From contig JBBSVU010000014.1 of NCBI GenBank assembly GCA_038046645.1, positions 1,512-65,511 of the forward strand: a stretch of DNA of 64,000 nt. The letters run 5' to 3'. The notes beneath the pieces are model-generated. The model saw nothing but the letters and a program-made list of their open reading frames with translations, did not search any database and was not told where the DNA came from. How positions within the stretch are numbered: the first letter of the stretch is position 1; every line of letters begins with the position of its first letter. This stretch comes from an archaeon (GTDB lineage: Archaea; Iainarchaeota; Iainarchaeia; Iainarchaeales; 0-14-0-20-34-12). The translations under genes were made by a program, and so were the position numbers. Below, in pieces: positions 3,190 to 56,810 of the stretch.

Positions 3190-4395
3190 ATGAACACAGA
3201 AAAAATCAGGCAGGATTTTGAAATATTGAAAAAAGGAATTATCTATTTTGACAATGCCTGCATGACCTTAAGGCCTAATCAAGTTATTGAGGAAATTTCC
3301 CGCTATTATAAAGAATTTCCATCATGCTCTGGAAGGTCAAACCATCAATTAGCGATAAAGGCAACAGAAGAATATGAAAGCGCGCGTGATAAGATAAGGC
3401 ATTTCATAAATGCAAAATCAGCTGATGAGATAATTCACACAAAGAACACTACTGAAGCAATTAATATTGTTGTAAATTCATTCCCTTTTGAGCAGGGAAA
3501 AGCAACCGTTTCAAGCGACAGGGAACATAACTCTAATCTGATTCCTTGGCAGTTTCTAGAAAAAGAAAAAGGCATTAAGCATGTGATTGTTGAATCAGAT
3601 GCAAATGAAGAATTCTCACTAAAGAATTTTGAAAATGCACTGCAGAACAACAATGTACAGATGGTTGCAATTCAGCATACAAGCAATATTGACGGATATA
3701 TTTTGCCGATTGAGAAAATAATCAAATTAGCTCATGATTTCAATGCTTATGTTTTTGTTGATGCAGCACAGGGTGCACCACATTCAAAGATAGATGTCAG
3801 GAAATTAGATGTTGATTTTTTGGCATTTTCAGGGCATAAGGCTTGTGGCCCATCTGGAACAGGCTGTTTATACGGCAAAAAAGAATTGCTGGACAAGATG
3901 CAACCTTTCATGTCAGGAGGGCATACTGCTTACAACTCAACATACACGACAGCAGAATTTGAGAAAGCACCGGCAAAATTTGAGGCAGGATTGCAGGATG
4001 TTGCAGGAATGTTAGGCTTTGGAAAAGCCTGTGAATATCTTGAAAAAATAGGCATGCAAAATATAGAAGAGCATGAAAGAAAACTGAACAAAATAATTAC
4101 TGAAAGATTGTCTGAGATTAAAGGCTTGAATATTATCGGGGTAAAAGACTGGAAGAAAAAATGCGGGATTACAAGTTTCAATGTAAATGGAATGGACATA
4201 TTTGATATTGCTATTTTGCTTGACAACACAAAGAAGATTGCGATAAGGGCGGGGATGCATTGTGCGCATTCATGGTTTAACAAACGCGGATTGAAAGGTT
4301 CGGCGAGAGCTTCTTTATATTTCTACAATACTGAAGAAGAAGCAAAGATATTCTGTGATGAATTGCGGGAGATAGTTAAAACCTTGGGCAAATAA
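3190..4395 (+). CDS. sufS: cysteine desulfurase, SufS/CsdA-like class V aminotransferase
   Basis: PLP-lysine motif FSGHKACGPSGTGCLYG and catalytic-Cys motif RAGMHCA, with HTSN and DAAQ motifs. 401 aa. Confidence 0.8.
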   Translation: MNTEKIRQDFEILKKGIIYFDNACMTLRPNQVIEEISRYYKEFPSCSGRSNHQLAIKATEEYESARDKIRHFINAKSADEIIHTKNTTEAINIVVNSFPFEQGKATVSSDREHNSNLIPWQFLEKEKGIKHVIVESDANEEFSLKNFENALQNNNVQMVAIQHTSNIDGYILPIEKIIKLAHDFNAYVFVDAAQGAPHSKIDVRKLDVDFLAFSGHKACGPSGTGCLYGKKELLDKMQPFMSGGHTAYNSTYTTAEFEKAPAKFEAGLQDVAGMLGFGKACEYLEKIGMQNIEEHERKLNKIITERLSEIKGLNIIGVKDWKKKCGITSFNVNGMDIFDIAILLDNTKKIAIRAGMHCAHSWFNKRGLKGSARASLYFYNTEEEAKIFCDELREIVKTLGK

Positions 4396-14545: not shown

Positions 14546-15499
14546 TTAGTTTCTTACAATGTGCGTTCCTGCATTTCCTTCCACTGCTTGCATTAATTTA
14601 TCAATTGAAGTAATTATAACTTGTTTTCCGCCTTTTTCAAGGAAATCAACTGCTGCTTCAATCTTTGGACCCATGCTTCCAGCAGGGAAATGCCCTTGCT
14701 TCAAATAATCCTTTGCTTCGTTCAACGTAATTTTATCTAATTGTTTTTGTTGAGGAGTATTAAAATTTAAGCAAACTTTTTCCACCCCTGTCAAAATAAT
14801 TAGTTGATCCGCTTTAATTTGGGAGGCTAAAAGTGCAGAAGCCCTATCCTTGTCAACAACACCGTCAATGCCTTCTAATCTTCCATCTTTTTCATAATAA
14901 ACAGGCATTCCTCCCCCGCCGCAAACAACAGGAATAATGTTTGAATCGACCAATTTTTTTATTGTTTCTTTTTCAACAATATCTTTTGGAATTGGGCTTG
15001 GGACTACTCTTCTAAAACCTCTGCCAGAATCCTCAATAAAAACCATTTTTTCGGTATTCTCTTTTGATTTAATTTTCTCAACCTGCTCTTTTGTGTAAAA
15101 TGGGCCAATTGGTTTTGACGGATTTATTACATTAAGGTCATTTTTATCACAAACAACCTGGGTAAGCAAGCATACAACCTTTCTTTTAATTCCTTGCTGC
15201 TTCAATTTGTTCTGCAAGGTTTGTTCAATCATATAGCCTATCTCGCCTTCAGATTCCGCTACTGCTACACCTAATGGAATGTAATATGCCTTATCCAGTG
15301 CTGCTTCAGTCCTGATCATTATATTTCCAACCTGGGGGCCATTTCCGTGTGTAATTGCCAATTTGTAGCCTTTTTTAATCAAAGGAATAATTCCTTCAGC
15401 AGCTGCCCTTGTGTTTGCAAACTGCTCATACACTGTACCGTACTGACCTTTCCTAATCAGGGCATTTCCGCCCAATGCTAAAACTATTTTAGTATTCAT
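14546..15499 (-). CDS. arcC: carbamate kinase
   Basis: IVLALGGNALIRKGQ, ITHGNGPQVGN, VVCGGGGMPV. 317 aa, full length. Confidence 0.9.
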   Translation of the reverse strand: MNTKIVLALGGNALIRKGQYGTVYEQFANTRAAAEGIIPLIKKGYKLAITHGNGPQVGNIMIRTEAALDKAYYIPLGVAVAESEGEIGYMIEQTLQNKLKQQGIKRKVVCLLTQVVCDKNDLNVINPSKPIGPFYTKEQVEKIKSKENTEKMVFIEDSGRGFRRVVPSPIPKDIVEKETIKKLVDSNIIPVVCGGGGMPVYYEKDGRLEGIDGVVDKDRASALLASQIKADQLIILTGVEKVCLNFNTPQQKQLDKITLNEAKDYLKQGHFPAGSMGPKIEAAVDFLEKGGKQVIITSIDKLMQAVEGNAGTHIVRN

Positions 15500-15500
15500 G

Positions 15501-15700
15501 CCAATCCTTTTCTTTTTTAGAAAAAAAGAAAAGTCTTAGGCCTATTCCAAAAGAAAAAACTGAAATAGTTAGCTTTTCTTTTCTTTCTTTTGATATGCTA
15601 CATTTCCAAATAAAATTCCTATGGAATTTTATTGGACCAGTAAAATTCTACGAATTTTACTTGGTTCTTTCTTTTCTTTGCGAAAGAAAAGAAAGAAAAG
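15501..15700 (+). repeat. full-length extragenic copy of the hairpin element (copy C) with two inserted short hairpins
   Basis: CCAATCC-[TTTTCTTTTTTAGAAAAAAAGAAAA]-GTCTTAGG, then CCAAAAGAAAAAAC...TTTTCTTTTCTTTCTTTTGA. Short hairpins at 15608-15633 and 15640-15660. Then CTTTCTTTTCTTT-GCG-AAAGAAAAGAAAG (15667-15695). Confidence 0.7.
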
Positions 15701-15706
15701 GTGCAA

Positions 15707-15924
15707 CGCTGGGGGCGAGATTTGAACTCGCGCGGGCTTGCGCCCAACAGCTAGCTGCCATTTTGTTCTGCCAAAAGAAAAACAGGAACTATTTATTAAT
15801 TATGAATACATTGAATTAAATTAGTTCTCTTTTCTTTTGGCAACCTACATTTTCTTTTCTCTTTTTAAGAGAAAAGAAAAGGCGGTAGCAGGCTGTCGCC
15901 TTAACCGGACTGGGCCACCCCAGC
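15707..15924 (-). tRNA. tRNA-Ser(GCU) with 133-nt intron at the canonical 37/38 position
   Basis: 5' exon 15886-15924, 3' exon 15707-15752. Acceptor GCTGGGG/CCCCAGC, anticodon loop CTGCTA|A, variable arm TGGGCGCAAGCCCGC, T arm GCGAG-TTCAAAT-CTCGC, discriminator G. Loop CUGC pairs with intron-3' GCAG (BHB-like). Confidence 0.9.
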
Positions 15925-15962
15925 TTTTTGATACTAAAAAAGGTTGCTTAATCTTTAAAATG

Positions 15963-16640
15963 CTATTTATCTTGAGAAATTAGGCTTTGAAGGCTTTCCC
16001 TTGGCAGCACAATGCCTGTTTTCATTCCTTCCCTGACCCTTACTAATTTCCTATCCTTTAAAGAAAATACCCTAGAAAAAGGTTCTATTGGCAATACTAT
16101 GGTTCCTCTTTTATGAGCGGTCTTTCTTGCTTCATTATCAAATCTAATTGTAACTTTATCTTCACCAACTGAAACTGCATGTCCCCTGTATCTTTTCCCA
16201 TTTAAGTTAGCCTCTACTCTTTGGTTAGGATTTACTTCAAAAAACCTGGCATACCTTAATTCAGGCTTTCTATTGCATAGATCAACAAGCTCTTCAATAT
16301 TCCTTACTGAAAAATGTTCTGGCCTAAGCTCAGAAGGTTTCATTAAATCCGAAAATCTTCTTAATAATTTTGTGAAATTTCCGCCATTAAGCAAAAGTGC
16401 CCTATTGGCATTTGAAAGCAATCTTCTTGCACTAAATTTACTTAAATCAGGTATTACGGCACATAATTCATCTGCGCGTTTTTTAGGAAGAAGCCTAAGC
16501 TTTTCATCAGGGGCAATCTTGGTAGGCATAACAGTTCCCTTTCTTAATAAAGATATTCTTGAAAACCTTCGTGTAGCCCATTTGCTTGCTCTGGTTAATC
16601 TGGGTTTTGAGGGTTTTTTAATCACCGGTTTTGCAGGCAT
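15963..16640 (-). CDS. hypothetical protein, Arg/Lys-rich N-terminus
   Basis: 225-aa ORF with no recognisable motif. Its Arg-rich composition differs from the Lys/Glu/Ile-rich neighbours. Confidence 0.5.
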   Translation of the reverse strand: MPAKPVIKKPSKPRLTRASKWATRRFSRISLLRKGTVMPTKIAPDEKLRLLPKKRADELCAVIPDLSKFSARRLLSNANRALLLNGGNFTKLLRRFSDLMKPSELRPEHFSVRNIEELVDLCNRKPELRYARFFEVNPNQRVEANLNGKRYRGHAVSVGEDKVTIRFDNEARKTAHKRGTIVLPIEPFSRVFSLKDRKLVRVREGMKTGIVLPRESLQSLISQDK

Positions 16641-16713
16641 ATTACTAATGATAATTAAAAGGATATATAATTACTGCTGCTTTTCACAGGTATTTTAAGA
16701 ATTAGCTAAAAGA

Positions 16714-21017: not shown

Positions 21018-21241
21018 GGACCCGTAGCTCAGTCTGGAATCAGAGCAATTCCCTCCTAAACCAAGCCTTTTTCTTTTAGGAAAAGAAAAAGGCTAGGCAT
21101 TATCCAAAAAGAAAACTAATAAATTATACTTAAACAGTTCTTTTTCTTTTGGGGTAACCCTAGACCTTTTCTTTTTCTTTTTAAGAAAAAGAAAAGGGTT
21201 GGGCAAGGAAGAGGTCCTGGGTTCGAATCCCAGCGGGTCCG
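21018..21241 (+). tRNA. tRNA-Arg(CCU) with 147-nt intron at the canonical 37/38 position
   Basis: 5' exon 21018-21058, 3' exon 21206-21241. Acceptor GGACCCG/CGGGTCC, D arm GCTC..GAGC, anticodon loop CTCCTA|A, T arm CTGGG-TTCGAAT-CCCAG, discriminator G. One A.G mismatch at 27:43. Confidence 0.9.
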
Positions 21242-31589: not shown

Positions 31590-31716
31590 ATAAAAGCTTT
31601 TTGGGCTTTATAAAGGATTGGAGAGAGTAGATTTCCTGTGAACTCTACTCGCTTTCATCTACATCTTGAAAGATGCAGATTTCCCGCTCACACGGTTAAA
31701 AAGCCTTCTTCCCACC

Positions 31717-35347: not shown

Positions 35348-35528
35348 CCAAGCCTTTCTTTTCCATTTCAAGCGAAGCTTGAAAGGACCTATAAAACCTA
35401 AGGTTTTATGTGGTCTTTGCGAAAGAAAAGAAAGTCTAGGTATTACAAGTAAAATTCTATTGGAATTTTACTGTACACTAAAATCCTTTGGATTTTAGTC
35501 GTATCCAAAGAAAAGAAACTATTTTTTT
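35348..35528 (+). mobile_element. 181-nt hairpin-element copy (copy E) flanked by a perfect 16-bp direct repeat
   Basis: GAAATTCGAAACATAA occurs at 35332-35347 and 35529-35544. The element is CCAAGCC-hairpin-GTCTAGG-TATTA..TATCC-AAAGAAAAGAAAC, with four inserted short hairpins (35366-35384, 35391-35409, 35449-35471, 35477-35499). Confidence 0.7.
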
Positions 35529-42764: not shown

Positions 42765-42903
42765 TAAAGGACATAAATATTTGGCTATAATATAATCCTT
42801 TACTACAACTTAAAGCAAGCTTTAAGTGTACAATTAAATCCTTTGGATTTAATTTGTATCTAGCAAAAGACAATAAAAGTCTCAAAATTAAAGTCTTTTG
42901 CTA
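42764..42903. repeat. array of four short perfect hairpins in the nadA-nadC spacer
   Basis: GTAAAGGA..TCCTTTAC (42764-42803); ACTTAAAGC-AA-GCTTTAAGT (42808-42827); AATTAAATCC-TTT-GGATTTAATT (42832-42854); TAGCAAAAGAC..GTCTTTTGCTA (42861-42903). Confidence 0.65.
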
Positions 42904-56462: not shown

Positions 56463-56810
56463 TTAGCCTGTTTTCAGGCTTTTTATGGTTCCGCTTGTTT
56501 TTAACAGCCTTACTGAAACCTTAATGTTATTTACATGACTTAACAATACCAAACCTGCTTTTAAGGTCTGCAATGAATCCCTTGAACATCTTAGAATTCC
56601 TAAGCCTGATTCAGGATCATACAGCACAAGGGAAAAATGCATTTCTGCAAAATGCAAGCTGCCTAACAAAGAAAGCAGATGGCCTATCAATGAATAATTA
56701 ACATCCCTCTGCGAAAACTTATTTTCAGAAACTATTTGAAATTTCAGATAGCGCTTCTTGATGCGCCAACTTGCCGGCAATGCCTTTGTTGATTTTTTCT
56801 GAACCTGCAT
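56463..56810 (-). CDS. RNase P protein component 2 (Pop5/Rnp2)
   Basis: LPASWRIKKRYLKFQIVSE...GILRCSRDSL...TSGTIKSL matches the Pop5 pattern. Superoperon context. Confidence 0.7.
   Translation of the reverse strand: MQVQKKSTKALPASWRIKKRYLKFQIVSENKFSQRDVNYSLIGHLLSLLGSLHFAEMHFSLVLYDPESGLGILRCSRDSLQTLKAGLVLLSHVNNIKVSVRLLKTSGTIKSLKTG

Follow-up and report, generated by a model that had tools for sequence, protein, structure and literature searches.

Modular palindromic repeats outside genes are known from bacteria. The REP/BIME elements of enterobacteria and the BOX elements of pneumococci (boxA-(boxB)n-boxC) vary in how many internal modules they contain. They are located at the ends of genes or within operons, and are transcribed into mRNAs whose stability they can change. 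REPs have a dedicated transposase, RAYT. The tRNA introns of archaea are generally regarded as a separate class. Fujishima et al. reportedly described in 2010 related intron sequences in unrelated tRNA genes of Thermoproteales, implying that introns spread within a genome. In MALAT1 and MEN-beta, a 3'-end triple helix lies beside the tRNA-like mascRNA, and cutting by RNase P/Z leaves a compact, protected RNA end. The bacterial BoxC, PIT and TMECO repeats are intrastrand triplex motifs of ITxF class II and class IV (PMC4666352). Here, we analysed the spacer between tRNA-Ser(GCU) and arcC in a 64,000-nucleotide (nt) stretch of archaeal DNA. The spacer is one cassette of two head-to-head units from a hairpin-repeat family, the same family that builds the tRNA introns of this genome.

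The stretch, called the window below, is C14:1512-65511 of a 1.17-Mb assembly of Candidatus Diapherotrites (DPANN) in 25 contigs (G000), from a tiny archaeon of groundwater. Its G+C content is ~35%. It was compared with a sister genome (G001), the metagenome-assembled genome [quoted passage not shown]. Literature searches turned up no account of repeats of this kind from DPANN or from other archaea.

Architecture of the spacer cassette

The spacer is 206 nt long and takes up the whole of window 15500-15706. It is bounded by the discriminator of tRNA-Ser(GCU) at 15707 and the start codon of arcC at 15499, and both genes lie on the minus strand. A first-pass annotation had read an intron-like element here, and the features it listed for 15501-15700 are all present on the plus strand: CCAATCC (15501-15507), a hairpin (15507-15533), GTCTTAGG (15533-15540), CCAAAAGAAAAAAC (15547-15560) with its partner tract (15573-15593), two AT hairpins (15606-15635 and 15637-15664), and a terminal hairpin with a GCG loop (15665-15697). 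The element was described there as intergenic and outside any tRNA. It begins 1 nt after the tRNA discriminator, however, and is therefore the 3' trailer of this tRNA rather than a detached intergenic copy.

A unit of the family consists of a G/C clamp, a perfect pyrimidine-loop-purine hairpin (12-18 bp, 3-nt loop), a linker with or without AT hairpins, and a mirror tract. When the tract past the hairpin was compared with the hairpin arm, 33 of 38 cases matched better as a mirror and two as a direct repeat; the mirror match is often perfect over 13-16 nt. Where two units meet head to head, as here, their inner tracts base-pair. Both outer hairpins of the spacer combine a G/C clamp with a perfect stem of at least 12 bp and a 3-nt loop, a combination that characterises the family.

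The modules are given on the minus strand, starting at the tRNA. The 5' clamp TTGCACC (15700-15706) separates the discriminator from hairpin 1, as seen in the sequence and the folds; in the minimum-energy fold, GUUGCA of this clamp pairs with UGUAGC (15596-15601) and encloses three hairpins. Hairpin 1 (Y1-CGC-R1, 15665-15697) has a perfect 15-bp pyrimidine/purine stem and is identical in the sister genome. The census and the unit typing identify it as part of a trailer-type unit, placed 8-11 nt past the tRNA 3' end with its mirror tract downstream. Next come AT hairpin B (CCAAGTAAAATTC-GTA-GAATTTTACTGG, 15637-15664), a standard insert module of the family, and AT hairpin A (CCAATAAAATTCC-ATA-GGAATTTTATTTGG, 15606-15635). 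The linker AAATGTAGCATATC (15592-15605) is a local variant of the family linker AAATGTAGGTTGC. These three modules were delimited by an alignment of 11 copies, in which hairpin B shows compensatory changes. The unit ends with the purine tract R2 (AAAAGAAAGAAAAGAAAAG, 15573-15591), which was found by the mirror test and the folds and is an exact 15/15 mirror of the hairpin-1 arm R1.

The central loop GCTAACTATTTCAG (15560-15572) is identical in the sister genome and recurs in a cassette in the atpK-atpE spacer on contig C20. Beyond it lies R2's partner, the pyrimidine tract Y2 (GTTTTTTCTTTTGG, 15547-15560), identified by the mirror test and by alignment with tRNA leaders. The R2-Y2 stem contains two G·U pairs on the minus strand, which are C·A mismatches on the plus strand. 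Y2 mirrors the pyrimidine arm of hairpin 3 at 11/11 positions. The leader alignment also assigns the linker AATAGGCCTAAGA (15534-15546), which is of the CCTAGA type found in leader-type units. Hairpin 3 (15507-15533) has a 12-bp pyrimidine/purine stem and adjoins the downstream gene arcC; by census and unit typing it belongs to a leader-type unit, with the mirror tract upstream. The 3' clamp GATTGGC (15500-15506) supplies the 7 nt between hairpin 3 and the arcC AUG, which matches the spacing of 4-7 nt from leader hairpins to tRNA position +1.

Folding of the spacer is strong on both strands. The minus strand reached -67 to -70 kcal/mol (z -7.9 for -70) and the plus strand -62 kcal/mol (z -5.3) against dinucleotide shuffles, and none of 200 shuffles folded as well. 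An Rfam 15 scan of 15400-16000 gave matches at chance level only (at most 21 bits, with cut-offs of 60-100), and at the gathering threshold only two intron-less tRNAs were found in the window.

By its order of bases, the mirror layout is that of a class II intrastrand triplex motif on one strand and of a class IV motif on the other. Pyrimidine, purine and (reverse) Hoogsteen domains lie in register on one strand. The third tract is separated by 73 nt in unit 1 and by 13-15 nt in unit 2 (9-15 or 70-127 nt in the family), whereas published searches for intrastrand triplexes used connecting loops of 1-6 or 0-10 nt (PMC4666352). This layout leads us to propose that the units could form triplexes.

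An archaeal tRNA intron lies between joined exons, and tRNA-Ser is complete without the cassette. The ends of the cassette are not paired with each other in the minimum-energy folds. No complementarity of the bulge-helix-bulge (BHB) type was seen on reading its two junctions (CAGCG|TTGCACC and GGATTGG|CATGAAT), for which no dedicated BHB search was made. Excision of the cassette from a tRNA-arcC transcript by the splicing endonuclease was considered and dropped, because the joined flanks would make no biological sense and no BHB-type pairing was seen.

Family members and their placement at RNA edges

Across the genome, 97 purine/pyrimidine hairpins were counted, compared with 7-12 in shuffled genomes. 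All 35 strong ones (arm of at least 12 nt, nearly all with 3-nt loops) have the pyrimidine arm first and lie in non-coding DNA. Of these, 24 are inside or within 320 nt of tRNA genes, and the flanking ones stand 5-11 nt from the tRNA end. A motif search gave 19 matches where 5.4 were expected. The first-pass annotation had named generic low-complexity sequence as the finding that would overturn its reading, and the genome-wide excess over shuffled sequence shows that the tracts are something else. A chance origin, with A/T-rich tracts of no common origin or order, could appeal to the 35% G+C of the genome and to the simplicity of the tracts, (A3-4G)n and (T3-4C)n. The excess of hairpins and motif matches, the fold z-scores of -5 to -8, the exact mirror relation and eleven collinear copies of one module refute it, and we give it next to no probability.

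With the spacer as query, nhmmer and BLAST matched the tRNA-Ser(UGA) intron on C16 (E ~1e-10 to 1e-22), copies on C6 and in the sister genome, the tRNA-Ser(GGA) trailer (C17), the Trp and Arg introns, and several non-tRNA sites. A collinear module of ~115 nt runs from hairpin 1 through both AT hairpins to the TGTAGG linker. Its 11 aligned copies from both genomes have a mean column identity of 73% and show compensatory double changes in nine base pairs, with almost none broken. It had been suggested that the two AT hairpins are extras absent from intron copies. This is true of the two introns in the window, but the tRNA-Ser(UGA) intron on C16 and at least nine other copies have them. Hence, the 11 collinear copies make these hairpins a standard module, which does occur in an intron. 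A closing stem between the 5' flank and the TGTAGG linker was also considered as a covarying feature; it fits some copies and not others, and we do not claim it. For the hairpin loops, no sequence preference was found in either the unit or the sense orientation.

AT hairpins of the form ACAATTAAATCC-TTT-GGATTTAATTTGT were also seen alone, with no purine/pyrimidine hairpin, at window 42821-42860 and 35466-35505 and at locus L035 115-150 (G000 and G001). AT hairpins thus exist as solitary units too.

The placement of the units follows a strict rule. In all 23 tRNA-associated units of the genome, the hairpin points towards the edge of the mature RNA and the mirror tract away from it, and the hairpin stands 4-11 nt from the RNA or gene edge. 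Trailers and 5' intron ends have the hairpin-then-tract type; leaders and 3' intron ends have the tract-then-hairpin type. Among trailer units, nine of ten are hairpin-then-mirror-tract, and the exception is hairpin 3 of the spacer, which faces arcC. Among leader units, five of six are mirror-tract-then-hairpin, and the sixth is really the trailer of an upstream tRNA-Arg. The five share the order pyrimidine tract, CCTAGA-type linker, hairpin, and 4-7 G-rich nt. Unit 1 of the spacer lies against the 3' end of the tRNA, as do the units of nine other trailers. Unit 2 adjoins the arcC AUG as leader units adjoin tRNA 5' ends, with the AUG in the place of tRNA position +1 when set against the five leader units.

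The repeat thus marks the edges of mature RNAs in general and not only introns. The first-pass annotation was right that the element is more than an intron, since the modules also occur in 5' leaders, 3' trailers, post-stop sites, a 5' untranslated region (UTR) and an operon spacer. Its picture of a dispersed repeat, in the sense of a loose scatter, is not supported, given the strict edge rule. Family members lie in a 5' UTR downstream of a TATA box (C35 of G001) and directly after stop codons (C59 of G001, C3 and C20 of G000). Another lies in the atpK-atpE spacer (C20:8624-8979, minus), 7 nt past the stop codon and with the loop word GCTAACTATTT, so the family is used inside an operon. The names atpK and atpE (V-type ATPase subunits K and E) were judged by eye from the translated ends of the co-oriented genes.

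The family extends beyond the two genomes. Relatives of the hairpin-3 unit were found in six other families of the order, among them copies at the 5' ends of introns in tRNA-Pro (G003) and tRNA-Ala (G023) and one immediately past a tRNA 3' end (G031). Of 196 genomes and 73 genera of the order, 108 and 44 contain the core pattern TTTTCTTTT-N5-13-AAAAGAAAA, with up to 38 copies per genome, and a reversed-order control gave counts near zero in the 196 genomes.

At several non-tRNA hairpin units, a conserved box of ~27 nt (GGAGAGAGTAGATTTCC(C/T)(C/G)TGAACTC) was noticed beside a TATA box of the TTTATAAA type, immediately before the unit (window 31607-31650; C6:8300-8345, C6:27690-27740 and C6:121510-121545; C17:26560-26610). 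In the window, this TATA box is at -30/-31 of a leftward gene. The box may therefore belong to a promoter, as an upstream element, or mark where a non-coding transcript begins.

As for orientation, the cassette is quasi-palindromic, so either strand can be read as the "intron-like" order of modules. Its plus-strand start, CCAATCC-hairpin-GTCTTAGG-CCTATT-CCAAAAG, is identical to the 5' module found in the tRNA-Ser(CGA) trailer and in several introns. The earlier reading placed the element opposite to tRNA-Ser. In semi-global alignments, however, the minus strand, which is the tRNA sense strand, scored higher than the plus strand against the Arg(CCU) intron (95 and 66), the Ser(UGA) intron (146 and 74), the Trp intron (95 and 50) and the Ser(GGA) trailer (107 and 64). 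Four short introns (Gly, Pro, Ser(GGA), Ser(GCU)) matched the plus strand slightly better. Taken together, the minus-strand alignments and the G·U pairs leave the opposite orientation unsupported.

Conservation, transcription and the role of the cassette

The sister genome has the same tRNA-Ser/spacer/arcC arrangement. The two spacers are identical at 199/207 positions (96.1%). Over the same comparison, arcC is 83.9% identical at all positions and 63.2% at third codon positions, tRNA exon 2 is 84.8% identical with compensatory T-stem changes, the tRNA promoter/leader 86%, and a nearby intergenic spacer 71%. At the third-position rate of arcC, the binomial probability of at least 199 matches in 207 is ~6e-30. 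Nine differences were located in the spacer. Six are in the 16 hairpin-loop nt, which include changed loops in AT hairpins A and B, and the others are one C-G to U·G change (minus strand, in AT hairpin A), one change in an internal loop and one broken Y2 pair. The linkers and the central loop are invariant. Judged from this pair of sequences, the spacer is under strong purifying selection, and the constraint on it is as strong as at second codon positions.

Other members of the family are less stable. The intron of tRNA-Ser(GCU) itself is rearranged between the two genomes (60% identity, 106 gap columns), with one module inverted to the other end. It was measured at 133 nt in G000 (window 15753-15885) and ~230 nt in G001 (L012 ~2385-2615); the hairpin/TGTAGG/purine-tract module is at the 5' end of the intron in the former and inverted at the 3' end in the latter, and exon 1 is 100% identical. 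The AT hairpins in the tRNA-Leu trailer are present in G001 and absent from G000. In G001, the tRNA-Leu(CAA) gene (C7:3000-3600, minus; L034 ~385-500) has its 17-nt 3' end GAATCCTGTCCCGTGCA duplicated ~100 nt downstream, just before the trailer hairpin, which resembles an insertion footprint at a tRNA 3' end. This tRNA-Leu(CAA) seems to bear an intron, and the G000 copy has none.

Such turnover would be expected of a selfish mobile repeat, similar to MITE or REP elements, that prefers tRNA edges for insertion, is tolerated there and has no function. The many dispersed copies with their variable module number, the gain or loss of AT hairpins in the tRNA-Leu trailer, the rearranged tRNA-Ser intron, a 16-nt direct repeat flanking copy E of the family and the duplicated tRNA-Leu end are all in keeping with mobility. 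The spacer copy itself behaves differently. It is 96% conserved where neutral sites are at 63%, its changes are confined to loops apart from the stem substitutions named above, and no direct repeat (target-site duplication) or terminal inverted repeats were found in the sequence at the ends of 15500-15706. The only relative that has the locus, G001, has the cassette in place. Across families of the order, the architecture of the units is kept, and the orientation rule holds in 23 of 23 units. Hence, module turnover at other loci makes the family dynamic, and the conservation of the spacer copy makes a purely selfish repeat unlikely there; we give this explanation little credence. Strict edge placement together with strong purifying selection speaks for a functional spacer module more than for a freely inserting repeat.

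Empty sites were of no help in this comparison. A metagenome scan for the spacer found the G001 sequence only. The DNA upstream of arcC is unrelated in a 66%-identical relative and in other genera of the order, and contains neither tRNA nor cassette; as the tRNA is absent too, these loci are uninformative as empty sites.

How arcC is transcribed bears on the role of the cassette. Promoter and start-site positions are predictions from spacing rules throughout. Among 576 regions upstream of genes, TATA-like hexamers show a sharp maximum 30 nt before the ATG (48 at -30, with a background of ~5-10), so the mRNAs of this genome are predicted to be mostly leaderless. About one fifth of the genes instead have a ribosome-binding match of the GGAGGTGA type at -15 to -6. 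In the last 120 nt upstream of arcC, none of the TATA-like words of the genome was found. Its closest A/T word begins at -24, a distance for which no case was counted across the genome, and GCTAACTATTT of the central loop does not recur as a promoter word. The tRNA-Ser gene has an upstream TTTTAAAG box, and RNase Z is encoded. The missing -30 box of arcC, the box of tRNA-Ser and the presence of RNase Z therefore favour co-transcription of tRNA-Ser, spacer and arcC. It points to a tRNA and an mRNA sharing one transcript in a genome whose mRNAs are otherwise leaderless.

The RNase P proteins Rpp29 (C10:30729-30971) and Pop5 (C14:57983-58264, window 56472-56753) are encoded as well. The archaeal RNase P RNA model RF00373 had no match in the whole of G000, probably due to divergence or to the 11% of the genome that is missing. 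Life without RNase P was considered as an explanation and dropped, as Rpp29 and Pop5 are present.

We infer that the cassette is transcribed and processed, that its units may form triplexes, and that it has a stabilising role. The cassette would be transcribed from the tRNA-Ser promoter as a 3' trailer, and RNase Z would cut after the discriminator. The arcC RNA would then begin with a very stable, self-contained hairpin domain. Such a domain could serve as a self-folding, end-protecting 5' UTR, which leaves the folding of the tRNA undisturbed and resists degradation. That the spacer is a selected, co-transcribed trailer and 5'-UTR spacer with a stable hairpin domain is the explanation we prefer, and we give it an even chance of being right.

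A dedicated arcC regulatory leader or small RNA would put the same modules to another use. The cassette would have a promoter of its own, for example in the central loop, and hairpin 3 would control the initiation of translation. The spacer is exceptionally conserved compared with other trailers of the family, its linkers and central loop being invariant. Hairpin 3 stops 7 nt short of the AUG and masks part of a weak AAGGA ribosome-binding match, and the distance from CTATTT to hairpin 3 appears to resemble that from TATA box to hairpin in tRNA leaders. The upstream region of arcC, however, offers neither a TATA-like word nor, in GCTAACTATTT, a recurrent promoter word. Distant arcC genes have unrelated upstream regions and Rfam gave no match, so we regard a dedicated leader as very unlikely.

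Several observations weigh against a selected RNA spacer as the preferred explanation. Only two orthologous spacers, from G000 and G001, are at hand. The other trailers of the family are not conserved, those of tRNA-Ser(GGA) and tRNA-Leu differing in AT-hairpin number between the genomes; the strong constraint may therefore reflect a role specific to arcC and not one of the family. Perfect palindromes with co-varying arms can also arise by template switching at the DNA level. On the tRNA sense strand, the 97 hairpins near tRNAs have 15 G·U and 17 A·C mismatches, a balance that gives no family-wide sign of strand-specific selection on RNA. A trailer-type unit on the sense RNA would need a purine-motif triplex (A·A-U, G·G-C), a type that is disfavoured for RNA. 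In the five tRNA leader units, the predicted promoter is directly upstream of the mirror tract. The tract may therefore be untranscribed, which points to DNA.

These last points feed the main rival of the co-transcribed spacer, a role at the level of DNA. H-DNA or a cruciform would stop transcription in both directions or act as an insulator behind the highly transcribed tRNA gene, or would belong to the promoter architecture of the next gene, and the fold of the RNA would not matter. H-DNA classically requires exact mirror repeats (PMC4666352). The strict pyrimidine-first polarity, with reversed-order counts near zero, puts the T-rich tract first on both strands; G·U pairs are in no excess over A·C, and the leader mirror tract would lie between the TATA box and the start site predicted there. 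Against this, the same hairpins, complete with T5-T6 runs, are also found inside tRNA introns and the operon spacer, where a terminator would do harm. The central stem of the spacer and its single stem substitution use G·U only on the minus strand. The bacterial intrastrand-triplex repeats had no promoter or terminator activity in tests (PMC4666352). We consider a DNA-level role unlikely.

Extended to the whole family, the co-transcribed spacer becomes a broader and more speculative picture. Units of the triplex type could be a lineage-specific punctuation system of Diapherotrites-related DPANN archaea, in which a unit 4-11 nt from an RNA boundary defines or protects the ends made by RNase P, RNase Z and the splicing endonuclease. 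With its AUG in the +1 place of a leader-type unit, the arcC mRNA would be matured from a tRNA-mRNA co-transcript to the leaderless or nearly leaderless form that the translation apparatus prefers, and tRNA introns would be the same cassette placed between tRNA halves. We hold this picture to be distinctly unlikely as it stands.

The neighbouring genes were defined as follows. The tRNA-Ser(GCU) gene (15707-15924, minus) was located by ARAGORN with introns allowed, by a scan for T-arm and acceptor, and by inspection of the sequence; its 133-nt intron is at the canonical position 37/38 (~15753-15885). The arcC gene (14546-15499, minus) encodes a carbamate-kinase-like protein of the Pfam AA_kinase family and lacks a TATA-like box at the canonical -30 of the genome. 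Two tRNA assignments differ from the ARAGORN output. The gene labelled tRNA-Thr(UGU) at C16:81752-81997 is wrongly named; its arms and its anticodon loop CCTTGAG are those of tRNA-Ser(UGA) with a long intron. An intron-bearing tRNA-Arg(CCU) at window 21018-21241 was overlooked. A fast-evolving, Arg-rich gene of 225 aa (window 15963-16640) has an extra paralogue in G001, inserted upstream of the orthologue (L012 ~3400-4150, compared with window 16641-16713), and the DNA of the orthologues is only 63% identical.

Comparison with known repeat and intron systems

As in the bacterial triplex repeats, the units combine pyrimidine and purine arms with a third tract, the mirror of the purine arm, and the complementary strand is the pyrimidine-motif version (PMC4666352). 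Both groups are dispersed, intergenic and conserved with variable loops (PMC4666352). The bacterial repeats are G/C-rich and short (stems of 6-15 nt, loops of 1-6 nt) and are not linked to particular genes (PMC4666352). Here, in contrast, the stems are A/T-rich and 12-18 bp long, and the second "loop" measures 9-15 nt, or 70-120 nt with extra hairpins. The units also keep a constant distance and orientation relative to splice sites and to the ends of tRNAs and genes, and the triplex is a prediction from the sequence layout.

With REP/BIME and BOX, the family shares its modular, palindromic and extragenic nature, the variable internal modules, and the positions at gene ends and in an operon. 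Those elements differ in being bacterial, in having no mirror third tract and no tie to tRNA exon edges, and in not occurring in introns.

The transposed introns of Thermoproteales are bounded by BHB motifs and lie inside tRNA genes, whereas the spacer copy is outside the tRNA and showed no BHB-type end pairing on reading. The present family also occurs as leader, trailer and mRNA spacer, unlike those introns. The sequence that builds several large introns here also forms tRNA leaders, trailers and an mRNA leader, with constant polarity to the RNA edge. This sharing links the origin of introns to ordinary transcribed spacers.

MALAT1 and MEN-beta differ in being eukaryotic, in their U·A-U triplex with a genomically encoded A-rich 3' end, and in having no homology to the cassette, for which protection of an RNA end would follow from the proposed mechanism. 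The likeness is a triple-helix-type element immediately beside an RNase P/Z processing signal, and we use it as a working analogy for the cassette only. The cassette is a concrete archaeal candidate for a structured element that marks or protects RNA ends, perhaps as a natural nucleic-acid triplex.

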